A stretch of DNA of 24,725 nt from a virus: positions 1 through 24,725 of the IMG/VR virus record IMGVR_UViG_3300009285_003054. One strand, written 5' to 3'. Positions 1 through 5,969 of this stretch are shown piece after piece. The notes beneath the pieces are model-generated. The model saw only the letters and a program-made list of their open reading frames with translations. It had not been told where the DNA came from and did not search any database. The translations under genes and the position numbers were made by a program. Each line of letters begins with the position of its first letter. Within the stretch, counting starts at the first letter, position 1.

Positions 1-204
1 ATTCCTGACTTGATTCCTGACTTGATTCCTGACTTGATCCCCGACTTGATTCCTGACTTGATTCCTGACTTGATCCCAGACTTGATCCCAGACTTGATCC
101 ACGACTTGATCCCCGACTTGATCTCCGACTTGATTCCTGACTTGATCCCCGACTTGATCTCCGACTTGATTCCTGACTTGATTCCCGACTTGATCCCTGA
201 CTTG
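1..204 (-). repeat. Coding 12-bp tandem repeat, at least 17 units (minus strand CAAGTCxxx(A/G)AT)
   Basis: GACTTG recurs every 12 nt from position 1 to 204. Variation is limited to the third codon (R/G/W/V) and the first base of the fourth codon (N/D). Confidence 0.97.
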
Positions 205-420
205 AACCAAGTATACACTGCCTAAACAGCCGGCAAACGGACTGTTTAGGTGGATCCATATCGCTGGTGGCTCAACTCCCGCGCACCGATACGCGCGGGA
301 GATGGCATCTCGACATCGACTGTCGATTGGCTCTGTGGATAGGCCAATGTCCAACCATTTTTGCCTAAAAGTTGGAAGAAGTGCTTCTTGTTCGGGTGTC
401 AAATGTTCAATCTTGGACAT
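1..420 (-). CDS. DUF6745-like phage protein with QV(R/G/W)(N/D) tetrapeptide repeats; 3' end lies outside the window; absent from the ORF track
   Basis: My translation from ATG at 420 is MSKIEHLTPEQEALLPTFRQKWLDIGLSTEPIDSRCRDAISRAYRCAGVEPPAIWIHLNSPFAGCLGSVYLV followed by 17 QVxN/D units, open to position 1. The LTPEQ...KW..IGLSTEP...SP N-terminus plus QVWD repeats is typical of DUF6745-associated proteins. The start overlaps the upstream gene's stop by 14 nt. Confidence 0.85.
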   Translation of the reverse strand, partial: MSKIEHLTPEQEALLPTFRQKWLDIGLSTEPIDSRCRDAISRAYRCAGVEPPAIWIHLNSPFAGCLGSVYLVQVRDQVGNQVRNQVGDQVGDQVRNQVGDQVGDQVVDQVWDQVWDQVRNQVRNQVGDQVRNQVRNQVRN

Positions 421-1484: not shown

Positions 1485-1631
1485 CTAGCGTTTTCCAATG
1501 TATCCGGTTATAGTGCTTTGACCGCACACCTTCAGGGGTTCAATTCTACCAAAATGATCAAACACGGTTTGATCATCGAAAATCACAGGGTTCTTAACGA
1601 CATACCTCTCCAAAGACTCAAACCCCTTCAT
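1485..1631 (-). CDS. Small hypothetical protein (48 aa, MKGFESLERY...)
   Basis: Strong SD GGAGGAG (about 1641-1647) upstream of ATG at 1631, downstream of a sigma70-like promoter. Confidence 0.6.
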   Translation of the reverse strand: MKGFESLERYVVKNPVIFDDQTVFDHFGRIEPLKVCGQSTITGYIGKR

Positions 1632-1734
1632 TGTAGTAGCCTCCTCCGTTTTTTTGTTTCTGACCACTTGAGCCAACTTTACAGAAATCTCACTTTACTG
1701 AACCGTTAAGTGAATATCTGCAAAGTACAAATAT

Positions 1735-1763
1735 GGTATATCTACTTGCTGCTACAATGTCAA
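1735..1763 (-). promoter_or_regulatory. Sigma70-like promoter for the leftward operon
   Basis: TTGACA (1763-1758), 17-nt spacer, TATACC (1740-1735), with a T-rich UP-like tract upstream. The -10 element is imperfect. Confidence 0.6.
1750..1758 (+). promoter_or_regulatory. Extended -10 element, candidate promoter for the large ncRNA
   Basis: TGcTACAAT at 1750-1758 with no good -35. Predicted transcription start near 1765. Confidence 0.35.
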
Positions 1764-1789
1764 CAAAAAAAGAAAACATAGCAAAATCA

Positions 1790-3540
1790 GTATGCTTCCC
1801 GGTACACACCAACAAGTCACTAATGCAGATAAAGCATGATGGGAGCCATCAATTTAGCAACTCCCCCACCGAACCAAACTTGTGAAAGGAAAAATCGGGA
1901 ACACCAAACGTGGGGTGTATTGGGTACGTTTTCCACCCCTTGTTCCACCCTCGAAGGTCCTGGAGTTAGGATCCCCGGGTGGAGGAAAGCGACCGGGTGT
2001 TTATGCAACATCCGACCAGCGAGCCCTAATTGTAATTATGTTGCCGCCTTGGCCGCTAGCGTGATCATGTTGGGTGACAATGCCCCGTGGTGTTGGTCCT
2101 TCTGATTTGCGCCTAGCGCCGAAATAGCGTGTCGAAGCCTACACCGTGATGTCCACACACTCAACCCTCTTCTCCACCTCTCCACCGCAAGGTGCAACCG
2201 GTGATAACATAGGGATAACAAGGTGTGCATCTGGATATTATAAGACCCGGGAAGAATGCCACTGGCAACCCTGCTTAACTCGCTTTCGAGTTCTGGGAAG
2301 TCCTCTCGCTGACCCTGGGCCAGGCCGCAAGCCCCAGGTTGGACCGTAATCGGAACACCAATCTATGCGGGTGGCGATGCTGTTTTCTCCGTAATAGGGA
2401 AACGCTTTTAATTACGTCCCTCTAATTACGAAACGGGAGTTTTTAAGGTACCTTCGAGCCTATCTCCTGTTAGGACGGGATGGCCAGTCCGACCGGTCTC
2501 GCAATAAACAAAAACGTCTGACCCCCCTTCTCGTGAGGATCCGTGAGGTGTCATTCAATAGTAACCCGGTAGGTGCTCTGATGACAAAGAGCTTCTGGTA
2601 ATCCGGGATAAAAACTGGAAAGGTTCTCGATTCTGTATTCTGCGGGTAGCTACCCCGGAGAGGAGCGGAGACGGACATATGGTAATCCGGACCTGGTTGT
2701 CACTGGGCACCCGACAAAGTCTAGCTAGTCTCCCTTAGAAAAGATACCGGCTACGGTCTCGTCTCGGCTGGAACTAATAGTCAAAACCGCCAGCCTTGTC
2801 ACGTAAGCCTATGCGTGATGAACGTGGTATATGTTCACGGGTGGTAAGAGTAGGAGTAGGGCACTACGAGGTGCTAACTTGATGTTGTATAACAGCATCT
2901 GCAACCTCGGAAGTAGCAGGGACGCCATAGGAGGGATCCCCGCCCGGTTATCGTAGCAGGATACAGCACAACCGCCGTCGAGAACGAAGAATGGCTTAGC
3001 GAGAGCACATGGGGCAGGTACATAGTCCCTCGGGGATCCGTGAGTACCCCAGAAATTCTACTACAGGGAAAACGGAGAAAGAGCGTGACAAACCCGGCTT
3101 AGACACCGCCTGACTTGACAGCAGGCATATGAGATTCCGGTGCCTTTGATAAGGCGAATACGAGGTAGACTTGCTACCAGAATAACTCGAACTAGTTGAT
3201 GGGGTTCGTAACCTAATAGCAAGAGAACCTTCGGGAATCTTCCGGGGAGCATAACTTTCCTTGGCAGGACCCCTAATGGCTACAGCGTTTAGGAGTAGAC
3301 ACACGTAGCCATACCGATACAGCACTCTCTGCAACCAGCAAAGACGGGCAACCTTCACATTCTAGTAAGCAACCCACCCATACCCTTCTCTGATAATCCC
3401 CTTACTCTCTGGGATCCGAGGAGAAGCAAAAGAAGAGTGGACATCCTACTAAGAAGGATAACGTAAAACCGTTACAGAGTGCTTTCTAGGGATCCAGAAA
3501 GGAAAGGGATGGTAAGGGCGGGTTTTGTCTTCCCGGGGAT
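1790..3540 (+). ncRNA. Large structured non-coding RNA with an RNase P RNA (rnpB)-like core at about 1914-3107
   Basis: No convincing ORF over about 1.9 kb in an otherwise gene-dense region. Ordered RNase P-like elements: P2 1927-1943/3063-3074, P3 1944-1950/1977-1983, GAGGAAAG 1982-1989, P4 1987-1997/3093-3100, P5 1998-2001/2965-2968 followed by CAA, P7 2010-2013/2959-2962, and ACAAACCCGGCTTA 3088-3101. Many additional hairpins and long-range complementarities. Confidence 0.7.
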
Positions 3541-3620
3541 AATAGAGAATCTAATAGGGGATTGACTACTTGTTTAGTATCTTCTGGATCTCTGGTAGGT
3601 ATCGACACCATTTAGTCTAC

Positions 3621-4181
3621 TCAAAGGCTGGGGGTCAACCAGCCTTTGCATTTCAACGTGTTCACCGCAATTCCAATCTGGCGGGGGGTGAATTGTTTCT
3701 TGTGCTTCCACATGCACACACGGGTGACTATCTCATCCAGGCTGTCACATGGTTCGTGCTGTGTGATCCAATGTACAGTCACTAGAAGCTCTAGCCCAAA
3801 GGCCGACTCAAAACCTGATATCAGATCTGCCACACGTTCTACCCGGGCCATCGTTTCTGGATGCTGCTGCAGGATGGCTGTGGCATCCTCTATGGCACCG
3901 GGTATTAGATTGATGTGCCCGTCAGGTGCATGCCCTGCATAGCCAGAGACCATGTGGTATTCGATCATATGCATGGCATGCCACAAATTCTTCGTGTTGG
4001 GACCAAGCAATACCTTGTTGAACTTCAGGCGGAGCGGCTCACCAGCTATTTGAAGAAAGTATAGCAACTTGTATACTTCGAGCATGGTCACGAATGGGTC
4101 GAGTAGACCTCTCAGGTATGTGTCCATCAATTTCACCAAGGCAGCTCGTCCAGGCGTCATGGTGGGAACGGACGGTGCCAT
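3621..4181 (-). CDS. Stand-alone DarG antitoxin C-terminal (DarT-binding) domain with no macrodomain
   Basis: MTPGRAAL..LM..YL.GLLDPFVT.LEV.KL.YF.Q.AGEPLRL, GFES.FGLELL.TVHW and KQF.PRQI..A...L..KGWL match the C-terminal half of macrodomain-type DarG as I recall it. It has its own SD (CAGGAG) and ATG at 4181. No darT is present in the window. Confidence 0.8.
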   Translation of the reverse strand: MAPSVPTMTPGRAALVKLMDTYLRGLLDPFVTMLEVYKLLYFLQIAGEPLRLKFNKVLLGPNTKNLWHAMHMIEYHMVSGYAGHAPDGHINLIPGAIEDATAILQQHPETMARVERVADLISGFESAFGLELLVTVHWITQHEPCDSLDEIVTRVCMWKHKKQFTPRQIGIAVNTLKCKGWLTPSL

Positions 4182-4279
4182 GTAAGAGGCTCCTGTATGG
4201 GTTTTCCTGCTATTGTACTTCTACTACTATACTTCTATCTTTAGAGGATTGGCTTCGGGGGATAGGGATTGAGAAGGAT

Positions 4280-4319
4280 CCTGAAATGGATTGGGTGAGC
4301 CTGAAATGTATTTGGTGAG
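4280..4319. repeat. Intergenic 20-bp tandem duplication
   Basis: CCTGAAATGGATTGGGTGAG (4280-4299) and CCTGAAATGTATTTGGTGAG (4300-4319), 18/20 identical. Confidence 0.85.
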
Positions 4320-4364
4320 AATGTACCTGGCAAGATGGGAGTGGGTTAGGGGGCGACTGTCTGT

Positions 4365-5969
4365 CTACTTGTGGAATTTGAAGACCAAGTTGGCGACCGC
4401 GTCCCGGAGTGCGTCGCCTGCCTCTTTCCAACCTTCACTGTCCACGTACCAGCAGTTGTCGTCTTCACTGTCAAACAAGAAACCTGTGTTCTTCATGACC
4501 TTGCTGGTGAGCAGGGGGTTGAGCTCGGTAAGCTTCTTGCCACCATCAAGGCAGTAGAACACATCGGTGTCTACCTTCTTTTTGGTGTACCCCAGTACCA
4601 CCGGGGCATCCTCATCATCCCCGGAACCAGCACACTCATCCTCATCAGCATCCTCACACTCATCATCCCCGGAACCAGCACACTCATCCTCTTCCGCGTC
4701 ATCGTCATCCTCTTCGGTGGTGGGATCTTCCACCTTGGGTTGCTGCTTGCCAGCGCCCTTGGGCTTGCTGTCAGCCTTGGCTTCCGGAACGTCTACCATC
4801 TTGAGCTGCCCCCAACCAGCCGTCGCTAGCTGATTGTTGAGCTTTAACCAGGCGGTATCCCCGGTGGCTCCTTCGACCAACAGGCTGGTGGTATAGGCCA
4901 GCATCTCAGAAACTTTCCGGAATCCCCACTTGAGATCAGTGTTGATGTCTTTGAACGTCGCCGCCCCATCCTTGGCCCCGGCGTCAACCGCATCCTGCAT
5001 GAGCTTCTTCACTGCCTTGATGGCACTCTTCTGTGCCTTGCTCAGCTCAGCCACTGCCGGGGGGGCCGTCTCCTTCTTGGCCTTGGGCTCCGTCGGGTCC
5101 GGGGTGGTCTCTGCCTGGCCAGCCATGAGATTGACCAGCACTACCTCACACAGCAGTGCCGCGAGGTAGTAGTGCTTGTCCCGGAGCATACCGATGGTCT
5201 TGGACAACCCATCGGCGGTTGGGTTGATCAACCCTTTAAGCAGCAGGTACCCATCCTTCGGGGATCCCACACCCAGCCCCATGGTGGTGCACGCAGTCAT
5301 GATACCCTTCTTGTCCTTGTCCTTGCACAGCGCCTGGATGTGCTCCAGGGTGTAAGCGTCGGCGGGCACTTCGGGGAGCCCATTGGTGTCGGCGTCTTCC
5401 TCCAGCCCATCTTCAATGAGCTTGGCATCCTTAATGACAAAGCATATTTGTCCCACATCTGTTCCCTTCGGGATGACAATCCCTAGCCTCTTGGCCTCCT
5501 GCAGCATTTCCTTTATTTCAGTTGCTGTGGGCTTCTTGGCAGCTGTCTTACTCATGGTCCATTCTCCTTGCTGTTGTTGTGCTTGGCGTTCTGTTGTTGC
5601 ACCCTCGCCCTGGGCTTTACGCTCACCTGCACCTACCATTGTACCCGATTTGTTTCCGTTTGTCAAGCGATTTTTTTCAGCCGCAATGATTTTCTCGGCT
5701 TCCATCACGTCATCTGCTGGGAAGATACATGCATAAGCACACGTCCACTTTGATCCTACCTGACTACTTCTACCAGTACCTCTTTCCTCTACAGTTTCCA
5801 CTTTAACCGACTTACCATTGAATTTCAAGACCTTGGCCAATGTCCTTTCTCCATTGGGCATTCCGAAGAGAACTCGGTCATCTACCCGCACGTGCTGGGT
5901 TACACAGTGAAATGCATGTTCTGCTGCTTCATGTTGTACGGTTGCTTTGCAGAATGGACATTTGTACAT
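4365..5969 (-). CDS. Hypothetical multidomain protein: N-terminal CPFC...H..H zinc-finger-like motif, SH3/KOW-like beta domain, Lys/Ala-rich middle and acidic linker
   Basis: 534-aa ORF with SD AAGGAG at 5976-5981 and a consensus-like promoter upstream. A second AAGGAG plus in-frame ATG occurs at 5555. Confidence 0.85.
   Translation of the reverse strand: MYKCPFCKATVQHEAAEHAFHCVTQHVRVDDRVLFGMPNGERTLAKVLKFNGKSVKVETVEERGTGRSSQVGSKWTCAYACIFPADDVMEAEKIIAAEKNRLTNGNKSGTMVGAGERKAQGEGATTERQAQQQQGEWTMSKTAAKKPTATEIKEMLQEAKRLGIVIPKGTDVGQICFVIKDAKLIEDGLEEDADTNGLPEVPADAYTLEHIQALCKDKDKKGIMTACTTMGLGVGSPKDGYLLLKGLINPTADGLSKTIGMLRDKHYYLAALLCEVVLVNLMAGQAETTPDPTEPKAKKETAPPAVAELSKAQKSAIKAVKKLMQDAVDAGAKDGAATFKDINTDLKWGFRKVSEMLAYTTSLLVEGATGDTAWLKLNNQLATAGWGQLKMVDVPEAKADSKPKGAGKQQPKVEDPTTEEDDDDAEEDECAGSGDDECEDADEDECAGSGDDEDAPVVLGYTKKKVDTDVFYCLDGGKKLTELNPLLTSKVMKNTGFLFDSEDDNCWYVDSEGWKEAGDALRDAVANLVFKFHK
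4611..4691 (-). repeat. 33-bp direct repeat with 48-bp period, encoding EDECAGSGDDE twice
   Basis: CTCATCATCCCCGGAACCAGCACACTCATCCTC at 4611-4643 and 4659-4691. Confidence 0.9.

Follow-up and report, generated by a model that had tools for sequence, protein, structure and literature searches.

We report that a phage from groundwater carries, in the largest stretch of its genome free of open reading frames (ORFs), two motifs that correspond to the most conserved blocks of ribonuclease P (RNase P) RNA and that can pair with each other as its P4 helix. The locus lies in the first 24.7 kb (24,725 nucleotides, the whole stretch analyzed and hereafter the window) of the 176.8-kb IMG/VR virus record IMGVR_UViG_3300009285_003054, and coordinates are those of the window unless otherwise indicated. 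Summed over the explanations that assume it, descent of this locus from RNase P RNA appears quite likely, because the motif pair is too improbable for chance and forms the helix that defines RNase P. The reading we favor, at a probability of roughly 0.45, is that of an expressed, very divergent RNase P-derived RNA on the plus strand that keeps a P2-P3-P4 core; we favor it because the two most conserved blocks survive in a compact genome, which fits constraint over decay. The features on which the argument turns are these (CR, conserved region; P, paired region; J, joining region).

1677-3620, no strand assigned: longest segment of the genome lacking ORFs, about 1.94 kb, from ORF lists and six-frame stop counts
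1927-1943, plus strand: candidate 5' strand of P2, including CGTTTTCC (1927-1934), which can pair with GGAAAACG (3067-3074)
1944-1983, plus strand: P3-like hairpin, TCCACCC/GGGTGGA around GGTCCTG/TAGGATC, present in every fold
1982-1997, plus strand: CR-I-like motif GAGGAAAG-CGA-CCGGG, 5' strand of P4, single match in the genome
1998-3062, plus strand: segment between the 5' strand of P4 and the 3' strand of P2, about 1.07 kb, with no recognizable RNase P element and no Rfam family
3063-3074, plus strand: candidate 3' strand of P2, ACAGGGAAAACG, ending 13 nt upstream of the CR-V-like motif
3087-3101, plus strand: CR-V-like motif GACAAACCCGGCTTA, J2/4 and 3' strand of P4, single match in the genome
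3102-3545, plus strand: non-coding segment following the CR-V-like motif, moderately structured at the local level (z = -1.78 in 3100-3370, -0.94 in 3360-3545)

The motif pair and a predicted P4 helix

In every RNase P RNA the catalytic metal ions are held by the P4 pseudoknot helix, whose bulged U (U69 in E. coli) is near-universal and catalytically important. Counterparts of both conserved regions that form this helix, CR-I (GAGGAAAGUCCGGGC) and CR-V (ACAGAACCCGGCUUA), are present in the window and are able to pair as P4. The CR-I-like motif is made up of GAGGAAAG (1982-1989), CGA (1990-1992) and CCGGG (1993-1997), and the CR-V-like motif contains ACAAACCCGGCTTA (3088-3101). The pairing joins AAG..CCGGG (1987-1997) to CCCGGCUU (3093-3100), and the duplex formed by the 1982-1997 region with 3087-3102 has 8 bp and a predicted energy of -12.1 kcal/mol.

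Both motifs are unique in the genome: GAGGAAAG followed by 0-4 nt and CCGGG matches once in 177 kb, at 1982, and ACA(N)AACCCGGCTTA matches once, at 3088. They share a strand, follow the order of RNase P, lie 1106 nt apart and both fall within the largest ORF-free stretch. In 280 Mb of simulated first-order Markov sequence with the composition of the phage genome, the CR-I-like pattern arose at a frequency of 0.031 per genome and the CR-V-like pattern at 0.0025. The probability that both would fall by chance within 2.4 kb on one strand comes to about 5e-7 per genome, or about 0.02 over a scan of 250,000 windows; these figures do not take into account that the pair lies in the 1% of the genome that is free of ORFs, nor the P3 hairpin or P2. 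The central observation of an earlier, sequence-only reading of this DNA, that the two halves of P4 lie in CR-I and CR-V contexts 1.1 kb apart on one phage strand, is thus far beyond chance. We note that the partner motif was present beside none of 195 lone motif copies in other genomes: no CR-I partner was found within 3.5 kb upstream of 45 lone exact CR-V 15-mers in viral contigs, and no CR-V context was found downstream of the CGA-variant CR-I 16-mer GAGGAAAGCGACCGGG in its 30 viral and 120 bacterial or archaeal copies. We read these GAGGAAAGCGACCGGG copies as chance matches rather than homologues, the viral ones looking coding, and we read in the same way the 9 matches of an exact-motif scan with ACAAACCCGGCTTAGA.

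The P3-like hairpin, whose stem strands are TCCACCC (1944-1950) and GGGTGGA (1977-1983), abuts GAGGAAAG and is more stable than its shuffled counterparts (-20.6 kcal/mol as compared to -13.2 +/- 2.7, p=0.015), which bears out the proposal of a P3 hairpin running into CR-I. The candidate P2 helix comprises 8 contiguous Watson-Crick pairs, a length with p=0.024; its 5' strand CGTTTTCC has a local competitor, GGAAAGCG (1984-1991), and the unconstrained minimum free energy (MFE) fold favors that local pairing.

RNase P RNAs in other large phages

The sequence-only reading took RNase P RNAs to be chromosomal, and on this point it was mistaken. Of 17 large IMG/VR contigs carrying the CR-I 15-mer, 14 contain a full match to RF00010, the bacterial type A RNase P family (108-308 bits, 207-365 nt), in dense arrays of transfer RNA (tRNA) genes. 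These 14 contigs, of 100-497 kb, are L042, L063, L032, L078, L059, L083, L014, L082, L034, L021, L025, L044, L060 and L024 in our numbering, and among the RF00010-bearing phage records are some with a completeness rating of 100%, one of which has direct terminal repeats. The RNase P RNA of L060 is only 207 nt long, and RNAs of about 230 nt occur in phage tRNA arrays at L047:5635-5877 (plus strand) and L086:2248-2468 (minus strand); the latter two keep exact CR-I and CR-V sequences, fall below the Rfam gathering score and reach 26-50 bits on the half models described below. Judged by these matches, large phages carry RNase P RNA genes, both canonical and miniature. We found no description of a phage RNase P RNA in the open-access literature, and a survey of huge phages mentions their transfer-messenger RNAs (tmRNAs) but not RNase P (PMC7162821).

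The present locus is set apart from these RNAs in several ways. Like them it is found in a large phage, differs in size from the bacterial norm and shows a reduced or absent specificity domain (S-domain), but the jumbo-phage RNAs, whether canonical (L042, L063, L059 and others) or miniature (L060, L047 and L086), keep an exact CR-I with its bulged U, CR-IV and CR-V, and score 26-58 bits on the half models. The candidate RNA is expanded, unlike the shrunken miniature forms, and no expanded form was found among 76 loci with a canonical CR-I. Nor does the locus hold a contiguous catalytic domain (C-domain) of about 150-240 nt in a tRNA array, as the miniature RNAs do, its core being split by 1.07 kb. 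The carriers themselves are unrelated to the present phage, with a weak RecA-like match in just one of the 17 records.

With the bacterial type A RNA (E. coli M1/rnpB) the locus shares a P3 hairpin preceding GAGGAAAG, an 8-bp P4 pairing, the ACA..AA context of J2/4, an A after P4, and a candidate 3' strand of P2 placed 13 nt upstream of CR-V, within the range of the variable linker of the Rfam model. It differs in extending over about 1.2 kb from P2 to the end of CR-V, as compared to about 350-400 nt overall; in the 3-nt bulge of P4 and a J2/4 shorter by one; in lacking a detectable S-domain (P7-P14, CR-II, CR-III), P15-P18, L15 GGU and P1; in lacking a covariance-model match; and in residing in a phage with neither tRNA genes nor RnpA.

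Diverged and extended RNase P RNAs are known from groundwater bacteria of the candidate phyla radiation (CPR, Patescibacteria) (PMC8172020). These resemble the present locus in their groundwater origin, in having helices extended or missing, in often lacking the UGG/L15 motif and in often falling below the Rfam threshold; they differ in that cmsearch could recover them once thresholds were lowered, and in that they retain the general arrangement of helices, have gained at most a few hundred nucleotides and are chromosomal (PMC8172020). The large RNAs GOLLD and ROOL offer another comparison, being kilobase-scale non-coding loci in phage genomes, but the present locus has neither an Rfam match nor thermodynamic or covariation support for an ornate fold, and GOLLD and ROOL themselves carry no RNase P motifs. 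No Rfam 15 family matched, and GOLLD, ROOL, OLE, HEARO and the other large non-coding RNAs of Rfam gave nothing at E<=10; a match to such a family was one of the results that the sequence-only reading had named as a refutation.

Two side observations were made on the other viral contigs. Partial RNase P RNA genes, consisting of 5' or 3' parts only, occur at or near the ends of small viral contigs, namely L011, L015, L069, L076 and several loci with a lone CR-V at the contig end (L154, L166 and L168); all of these may reflect prophage integration into or next to rnpB. In addition, the tRNA and RNase P region of the 202-kb phage contig L044 contains a group I intron (3325-3528, minus strand, RF00028, 68 bits).

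Searches for the remaining RNase P elements

The following results weigh against an expressed RNase P-derived RNA. The bulge in P4 consists of the three nucleotides CGA (1990-1992), or equivalently GAC, and not of a single U, the residue found there in 29 of 29 aligned reference RNAs, references that were chosen by a pattern containing that U; furthermore J2/4 reads ACAAA, one nucleotide less than the canonical ACAGAA. No Rfam 15 family reached its gathering score in the window and none was found at E<=10 in 1600-4500 or 1990-3070, and RF00010 and RF00011 gave nothing at E<=10 on the whole genome. An insertion of about 1 kb would defeat the Rfam RNase P models, and the Rfam negative covers the unspliced sequence; for this reason the parts of RNase P were tested separately, using one nhmmer profile and three covariance models made from the phage and prophage RNase P RNAs that a CR-I 15-mer scan of viral contigs had returned.

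The nhmmer profile (35 RNase P sequences) has the CR-V-like motif as its best match in the genome (E=5.3 genome-wide and 0.029 in the region) and detects only CR-V in the region. With the 3'-half model R1 the best match in the window is again CR-V alone (12 bits, E=0.047). The top rank of CR-V in both searches speaks for an RNase P-derived RNA. The R1 alignment skips 108 positions and leaves out P15 and P18, and R1 detected in the window no J5/15 GCAA, P15 with L15 GGU, P18 or J18/2 AGAnGAAU (CR-IV). The 5'-half model R2 finds nothing at 1914-2013 (<4 bits); R2 is biased against a changed bulge because its references were picked by the exact CR-I 15-mer. As for the S-domain model R3 (28 sequences), its best match in 1677-3620 has 7.4 bits (E=1.6) and is exceeded in coding regions, and P7-P12 with CR-II, CR-III and the P8/P9 loops were not detected by it there. 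By comparison, three held-out miniature phage RNase P RNAs used as positive controls, two of which lie under the Rfam gathering score, scored 36-58 bits with R1 and 26-46 bits with R2.

Further points on the same side concern the helices and the setting of the locus. P1 is at chance (p=0.8), and so is the energy of the P2 duplex against shuffled flanks (p=0.62); the P2 pairing of the sequence-only reading is marginal. The MFE of the plus strand of 1914-3112 is like that of shuffles (z=-0.36), and a consensus scan found no plus-strand promoter or terminator. No RNA homologue was found in any collection searched, hence there is no covariation, and the gap, the RNase P-like motifs and the adjacent 534-aa and 186-aa genes were all absent from the available DNA of relatives (RecA identity 37-57%). 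The motifs are antisense to the whole surrounding gene block, because the minus-strand ORFs are, by their codon usage, real genes. Finally, the phage RNase P RNAs seen in this analysis all sit in tRNA arrays, and the present phage has neither tRNA genes nor RnpA.

Folding of the locus and its interior

All of the strings quoted in the sequence-only reading are where it placed them, including GGTAAGAG (2843-2850), AGCA-CAA (2965-2971) and CCGGTT (2944-2949), but much of the structure built upon them did not hold. Unconstrained, the MFE is -414.1 kcal/mol; with P2 and P3 forced and the strands of P4 left free it is -393.4, and adding -12.1 for P4 brings the core-only fold to about -405, some 9 kcal/mol above the MFE and within prediction error. 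Forcing P5/P7, P15/P18 and P10 in successive steps adds +16, +25 and +16 kcal/mol, so that the helix map of P5, P7, P10/11, P15 and P18 costs 57 kcal/mol beyond the core; competing nested long-range helices are predicted to be stronger, for instance an 11+9 bp helix at 2623-2643/2956-2985, and conflict with P5, P7 and P15. Its look-alikes of CR-II, L13 and CR-IV were picked up by no covariance model, and its expanded specificity domain meets an R3 score at the level of noise. Neither this detailed assignment of helices nor an expanded specificity domain merits further use. For the unspliced sequence the covariance models reached no score above controls, the weak CR-V match excepted.

Nor does the z-score of the plus strand support a hairpin-rich interior, as the sequence-only reading had described some 950 nt of it. 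Two coding controls have z-scores of -1.0 to -2.3, shuffled versions of the minus strand of 1914-3112 are more stable than that strand itself (z=+2.49), and local structure in sliding 150-nt windows is unremarkable; the single hint in favor is that the plus strand of this 1.2 kb folds 26 kcal/mol better than the minus strand. Downstream of the core, a long irregular stem at about 3371-3524 followed by TTTTGTCTT may mark the 3' end of a putative plus-strand transcript.

The locus is also rich in GGATCC palindromes, found at 1969, 2537, 2934, 3034, 3412 and 3490, six in 1.5 kb and mostly as GGGATCC, and GGATCCGTGAG is present twice in this region. The segments 1969-1977 and 3031-3039 are perfect 9-nt complements. 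Genome-wide, GGATCC is over-represented 2.4-fold (102 sites as compared to 43 expected).

Alternative explanations

We regard as rather unlikely that the locus is a relic, i.e., a phage RNase P gene that lost its middle to an insertion or to foreign DNA and is now non-functional, with the changes in the bulge and J2/4 representing decay. The phage has lost, or never had, the tRNA genes that accompany every phage RNase P RNA seen here; both hallmark positions are damaged (U to CGA, ACAGAA to ACAAA); P1, the S-domain, P15 and P18 go undetected in an interior that is thermodynamically ordinary; and the region is variable, with the segment and the adjacent 534-aa and 186-aa genes absent from relatives and the 186-aa neighbor recently captured from bacteria (the C-terminal domain of DarG, 55-60% identity). 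However, 1.9 kb of dead DNA would be unusual in a compact phage genome (91% coding), and decay that erased all other blocks should not have spared 13/13 and 14/14 motif positions. Nothing in the ORFs of the interior points to a decayed gene or a mobile element, and the intron families give no match. The selective survival of the two most conserved motifs would fit constraint better than neutral decay.

Alternatively, the locus might be a large non-coding RNA or a regulatory spacer unrelated to RNase P, such as a long untranslated region or terminator of the minus-strand operon or an origin or protein-binding region with GGATCC, in which the motifs are coincidental or convergent. The flanking genes are all on the minus strand, where there is also a terminator-like hairpin with a T-run (2541-2520) and strong local structure directly behind the 186-aa gene (z=-3.1 at 3375-3524); the six GGATCC sites of 1969-3490 compare with about 0.9 predicted from the frequency in this genome; the replication gene module lies next to the region; and beyond the two motifs no RNase P element was detected. 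We nevertheless consider this explanation unlikely in light of the chance of the motif pair (about 5e-7 per genome, about 0.02 over the roughly 250,000 windows) and of the missing partner at all 195 lone motifs elsewhere. The poor folding of the minus strand of 1914-3112 (z=+2.49) also argues against it, and the GGATCC cluster is not extreme, other 2-kb bins of the genome holding 4 sites.

Finally, we consider it improbable that the transcript is cleaved at, or loses, an intron or other intervening sequence making up the central ~1 kb, so that P2 and P4 would join what is left into an RNase P RNA of about 250 nt, either miniature or in two pieces. In favor of this, the two end pieces do sum to about 250 nt, miniature phage RNAs lacking most of the S-domain exist (L047, L086 and L060) and introns are known in structural RNAs of groundwater bacteria (PMC8172020). 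Against it, neither group I or II introns (RF00028, RF00029 and the D1-D4 families) nor any other self-cleaving family was found at E<=10 on 1990-3070 with models that do work in this setting (RF00028 matched L044 at 68 bits), the 3'-half model finds no P15 or P18 here, and the spliced core alone does not fold into an RNase P C-domain, its sequence-only alignment with 22 C-domains forming 15 of 45 consensus pairs (shuffles 9.7 +/- 3.5), a number equaled by 27 of 300 shuffles and not significant.

The phage genome and the surroundings of the locus

An ENA assembly of the same groundwater sample (SRR2177950, PRJNA292723) joins the first base of the window to the last 2.4 kb of the record, and independent assemblies of this phage genome yielded contigs of 176.8, 177.2 and 177.3 kb; because the assemblies join the record ends and agree in size, the phage has a complete, circularly permuted genome of about 177 kb, for which the CheckV completeness of 57% is an underestimate. 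The IMG/VR contig break falls within a 12-nt tandem repeat, GACTTGATYCCY, present in more than 20 copies (window 1-205; genome 176731-176803), and the gene-like codon usage of the ORF that holds it suggests a protein with a 4-residue repeat. The intergenic-enriched motif CTGACTTGAT was rejected, as it is merely this repeat at the contig junction, and CCTGACTTGA (3108-3117), which comes right after the CR-V-like motif, shares 10 nt with the repeat unit.

By a crude ORF count 91% of the genome is coding. It contains no tRNA genes, encodes no RnpA and has one tmRNA (65379-65792, plus strand, RF00023, 102.9 bits, tag ANNTKHYASEPARMVA), downstream of which there is a further ORF-free sequence of about 640 nt (65793-66432). 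The RNA locus adjoins a replication and recombination module with SbcC-like, clamp loader, Mre11-like, RecA/UvsX-like, topoisomerase-like and sigma-like genes.

The immediate neighbors of the ORF-free stretch are the minus-strand genes 1485-1676 and 3621-4181. The stretch itself has no coding capacity: stop-codon recoding is ruled out, as TAA, TAG and TGA are all frequent in all six frames, and small proteins within it were rejected, since the internal small ORFs have no Pfam or PHROG match and their codon usage (about -0.05 bits per codon, as compared to 0.17 +/- 0.06 in real genes) is non-coding-like. We likewise rejected a 282-aa ORF on the plus strand (861-1709) as a real upstream gene, its codon usage being -0.05 bits per codon; the minus-strand ORFs that overlap it (407-724, 942-1481 and 1485-1676) have gene-like scores of 0.11-0.21 and were also picked by the ENA gene caller, and the 282-aa ORF is probably a spurious shadow of these minus-strand genes.

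On the other side of the stretch, the 186-aa protein (3621-4181, minus strand) shares 55-60% identity with numerous bacterial proteins located behind DarT and a macro domain in defense islands (e.g., L136); on the strength of this identity we take it to be a recently captured C-terminal domain of DarG, without DarT or the macro domain. Its relatives being bacterial defense islands, it was rejected as a route to related phages. The 534-aa gene (minus strand) differs in the ENA assembly of the same phage, L087, by a 48-nt tandem-repeat insertion at 4611-4703 that yields a protein of 550 aa, with four mismatches at 4692-4701. This difference is repeat-number variation, within the population or between assemblers. 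Across the RNA segment the other assemblies of this phage (L087-L089) are identical.

Attempts to reach related phages had limited returns. Neither blastn of 1700-4400 against 50,697 phage records nor searches for related loci with the 282-aa, 534-aa and SbcC-like proteins gave anything useful, and a word search among 5.8 billion proteins returned only self-matches for the 534-aa and SbcC-like proteins. When the RecA-like protein was searched exhaustively, the nearest relative, at 57% identity, turned up on 3.3-kb contigs only, followed by relatives at 37-41% (L096/L098, L097, L103, L104, L094 and L099/G018, the last of 250 kb), which share the neighboring replication genes to varying extent; L098 and L103 additionally match the SbcC-like and 301-aa proteins.

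A candidate RNase P-derived RNA and its possible roles

Taken together, the claim of a virus-encoded, giant RNase P-derived RNA is upheld in part: descent from RNase P RNA is probable, given the motif pair, and a functional giant ribozyme is unproven. The locus is probably a very divergent or decaying RNase P-derived RNA rather than a demonstrated giant ribozyme. An origin in phages is plausible, by analogy with the phage RNase P RNAs described above, which exist and vary widely in size (207-365 nt, plus sub-threshold forms of about 230 nt).

If, as we favor, the locus is expressed, it would be a plus-strand RNA gene descended from RNase P RNA that has retained only the innermost catalytic core. 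A P3 hairpin would run into CR-I, with CR-V about 1.1 kb downstream and the 8-bp pairing between them acting as the P4 pseudoknot helix, and the P2-type helix (1927-1934/3067-3074) may clamp the two ends. About 1.07 kb of lineage-specific sequence would stand in for the specificity domain and P15-P18, three nucleotides would have taken the place of the universal bulged U in P4, and J2/4 would be one short. If such an RNA were active, recognition of pre-tRNA via the canonical T-loop or CCA contacts would be impossible; it would instead need the RnpA of the host as a partner on other substrates, for instance the precursor of the phage tmRNA, or the RNA would simply bind RnpA. This leads us to speculate that a phage devoid of tRNA genes makes an RNA of 1.2-1.8 kb in which P2-P3-P4 is kept, the metal-binding bulge is remodeled and substrate recognition is replaced by a new 1-kb domain, resulting in an RNase P-derived ribozyme or an RnpA-capturing RNA of new specificity, possibly acting on tmRNA or host RNAs. 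In this full form the scenario is unlikely.

Few ribozymes are universal, and RNase P is among them; its P4 core, bulged U included, scarcely varies. If our reading is true, an RNA that combines P4 and a 3-nt bulge with a kilobase of new sequence, and that lacks a specificity domain, would reveal the extent to which this scaffold can be rebuilt and whether its catalytic core can be turned to substrates other than tRNA. If the locus is instead a relic, it would testify that a module of RNase P and tRNA genes was lost in a lineage of jumbo phages. In both cases, large phages carry canonical, miniature and possibly expanded RNase P RNA genes.

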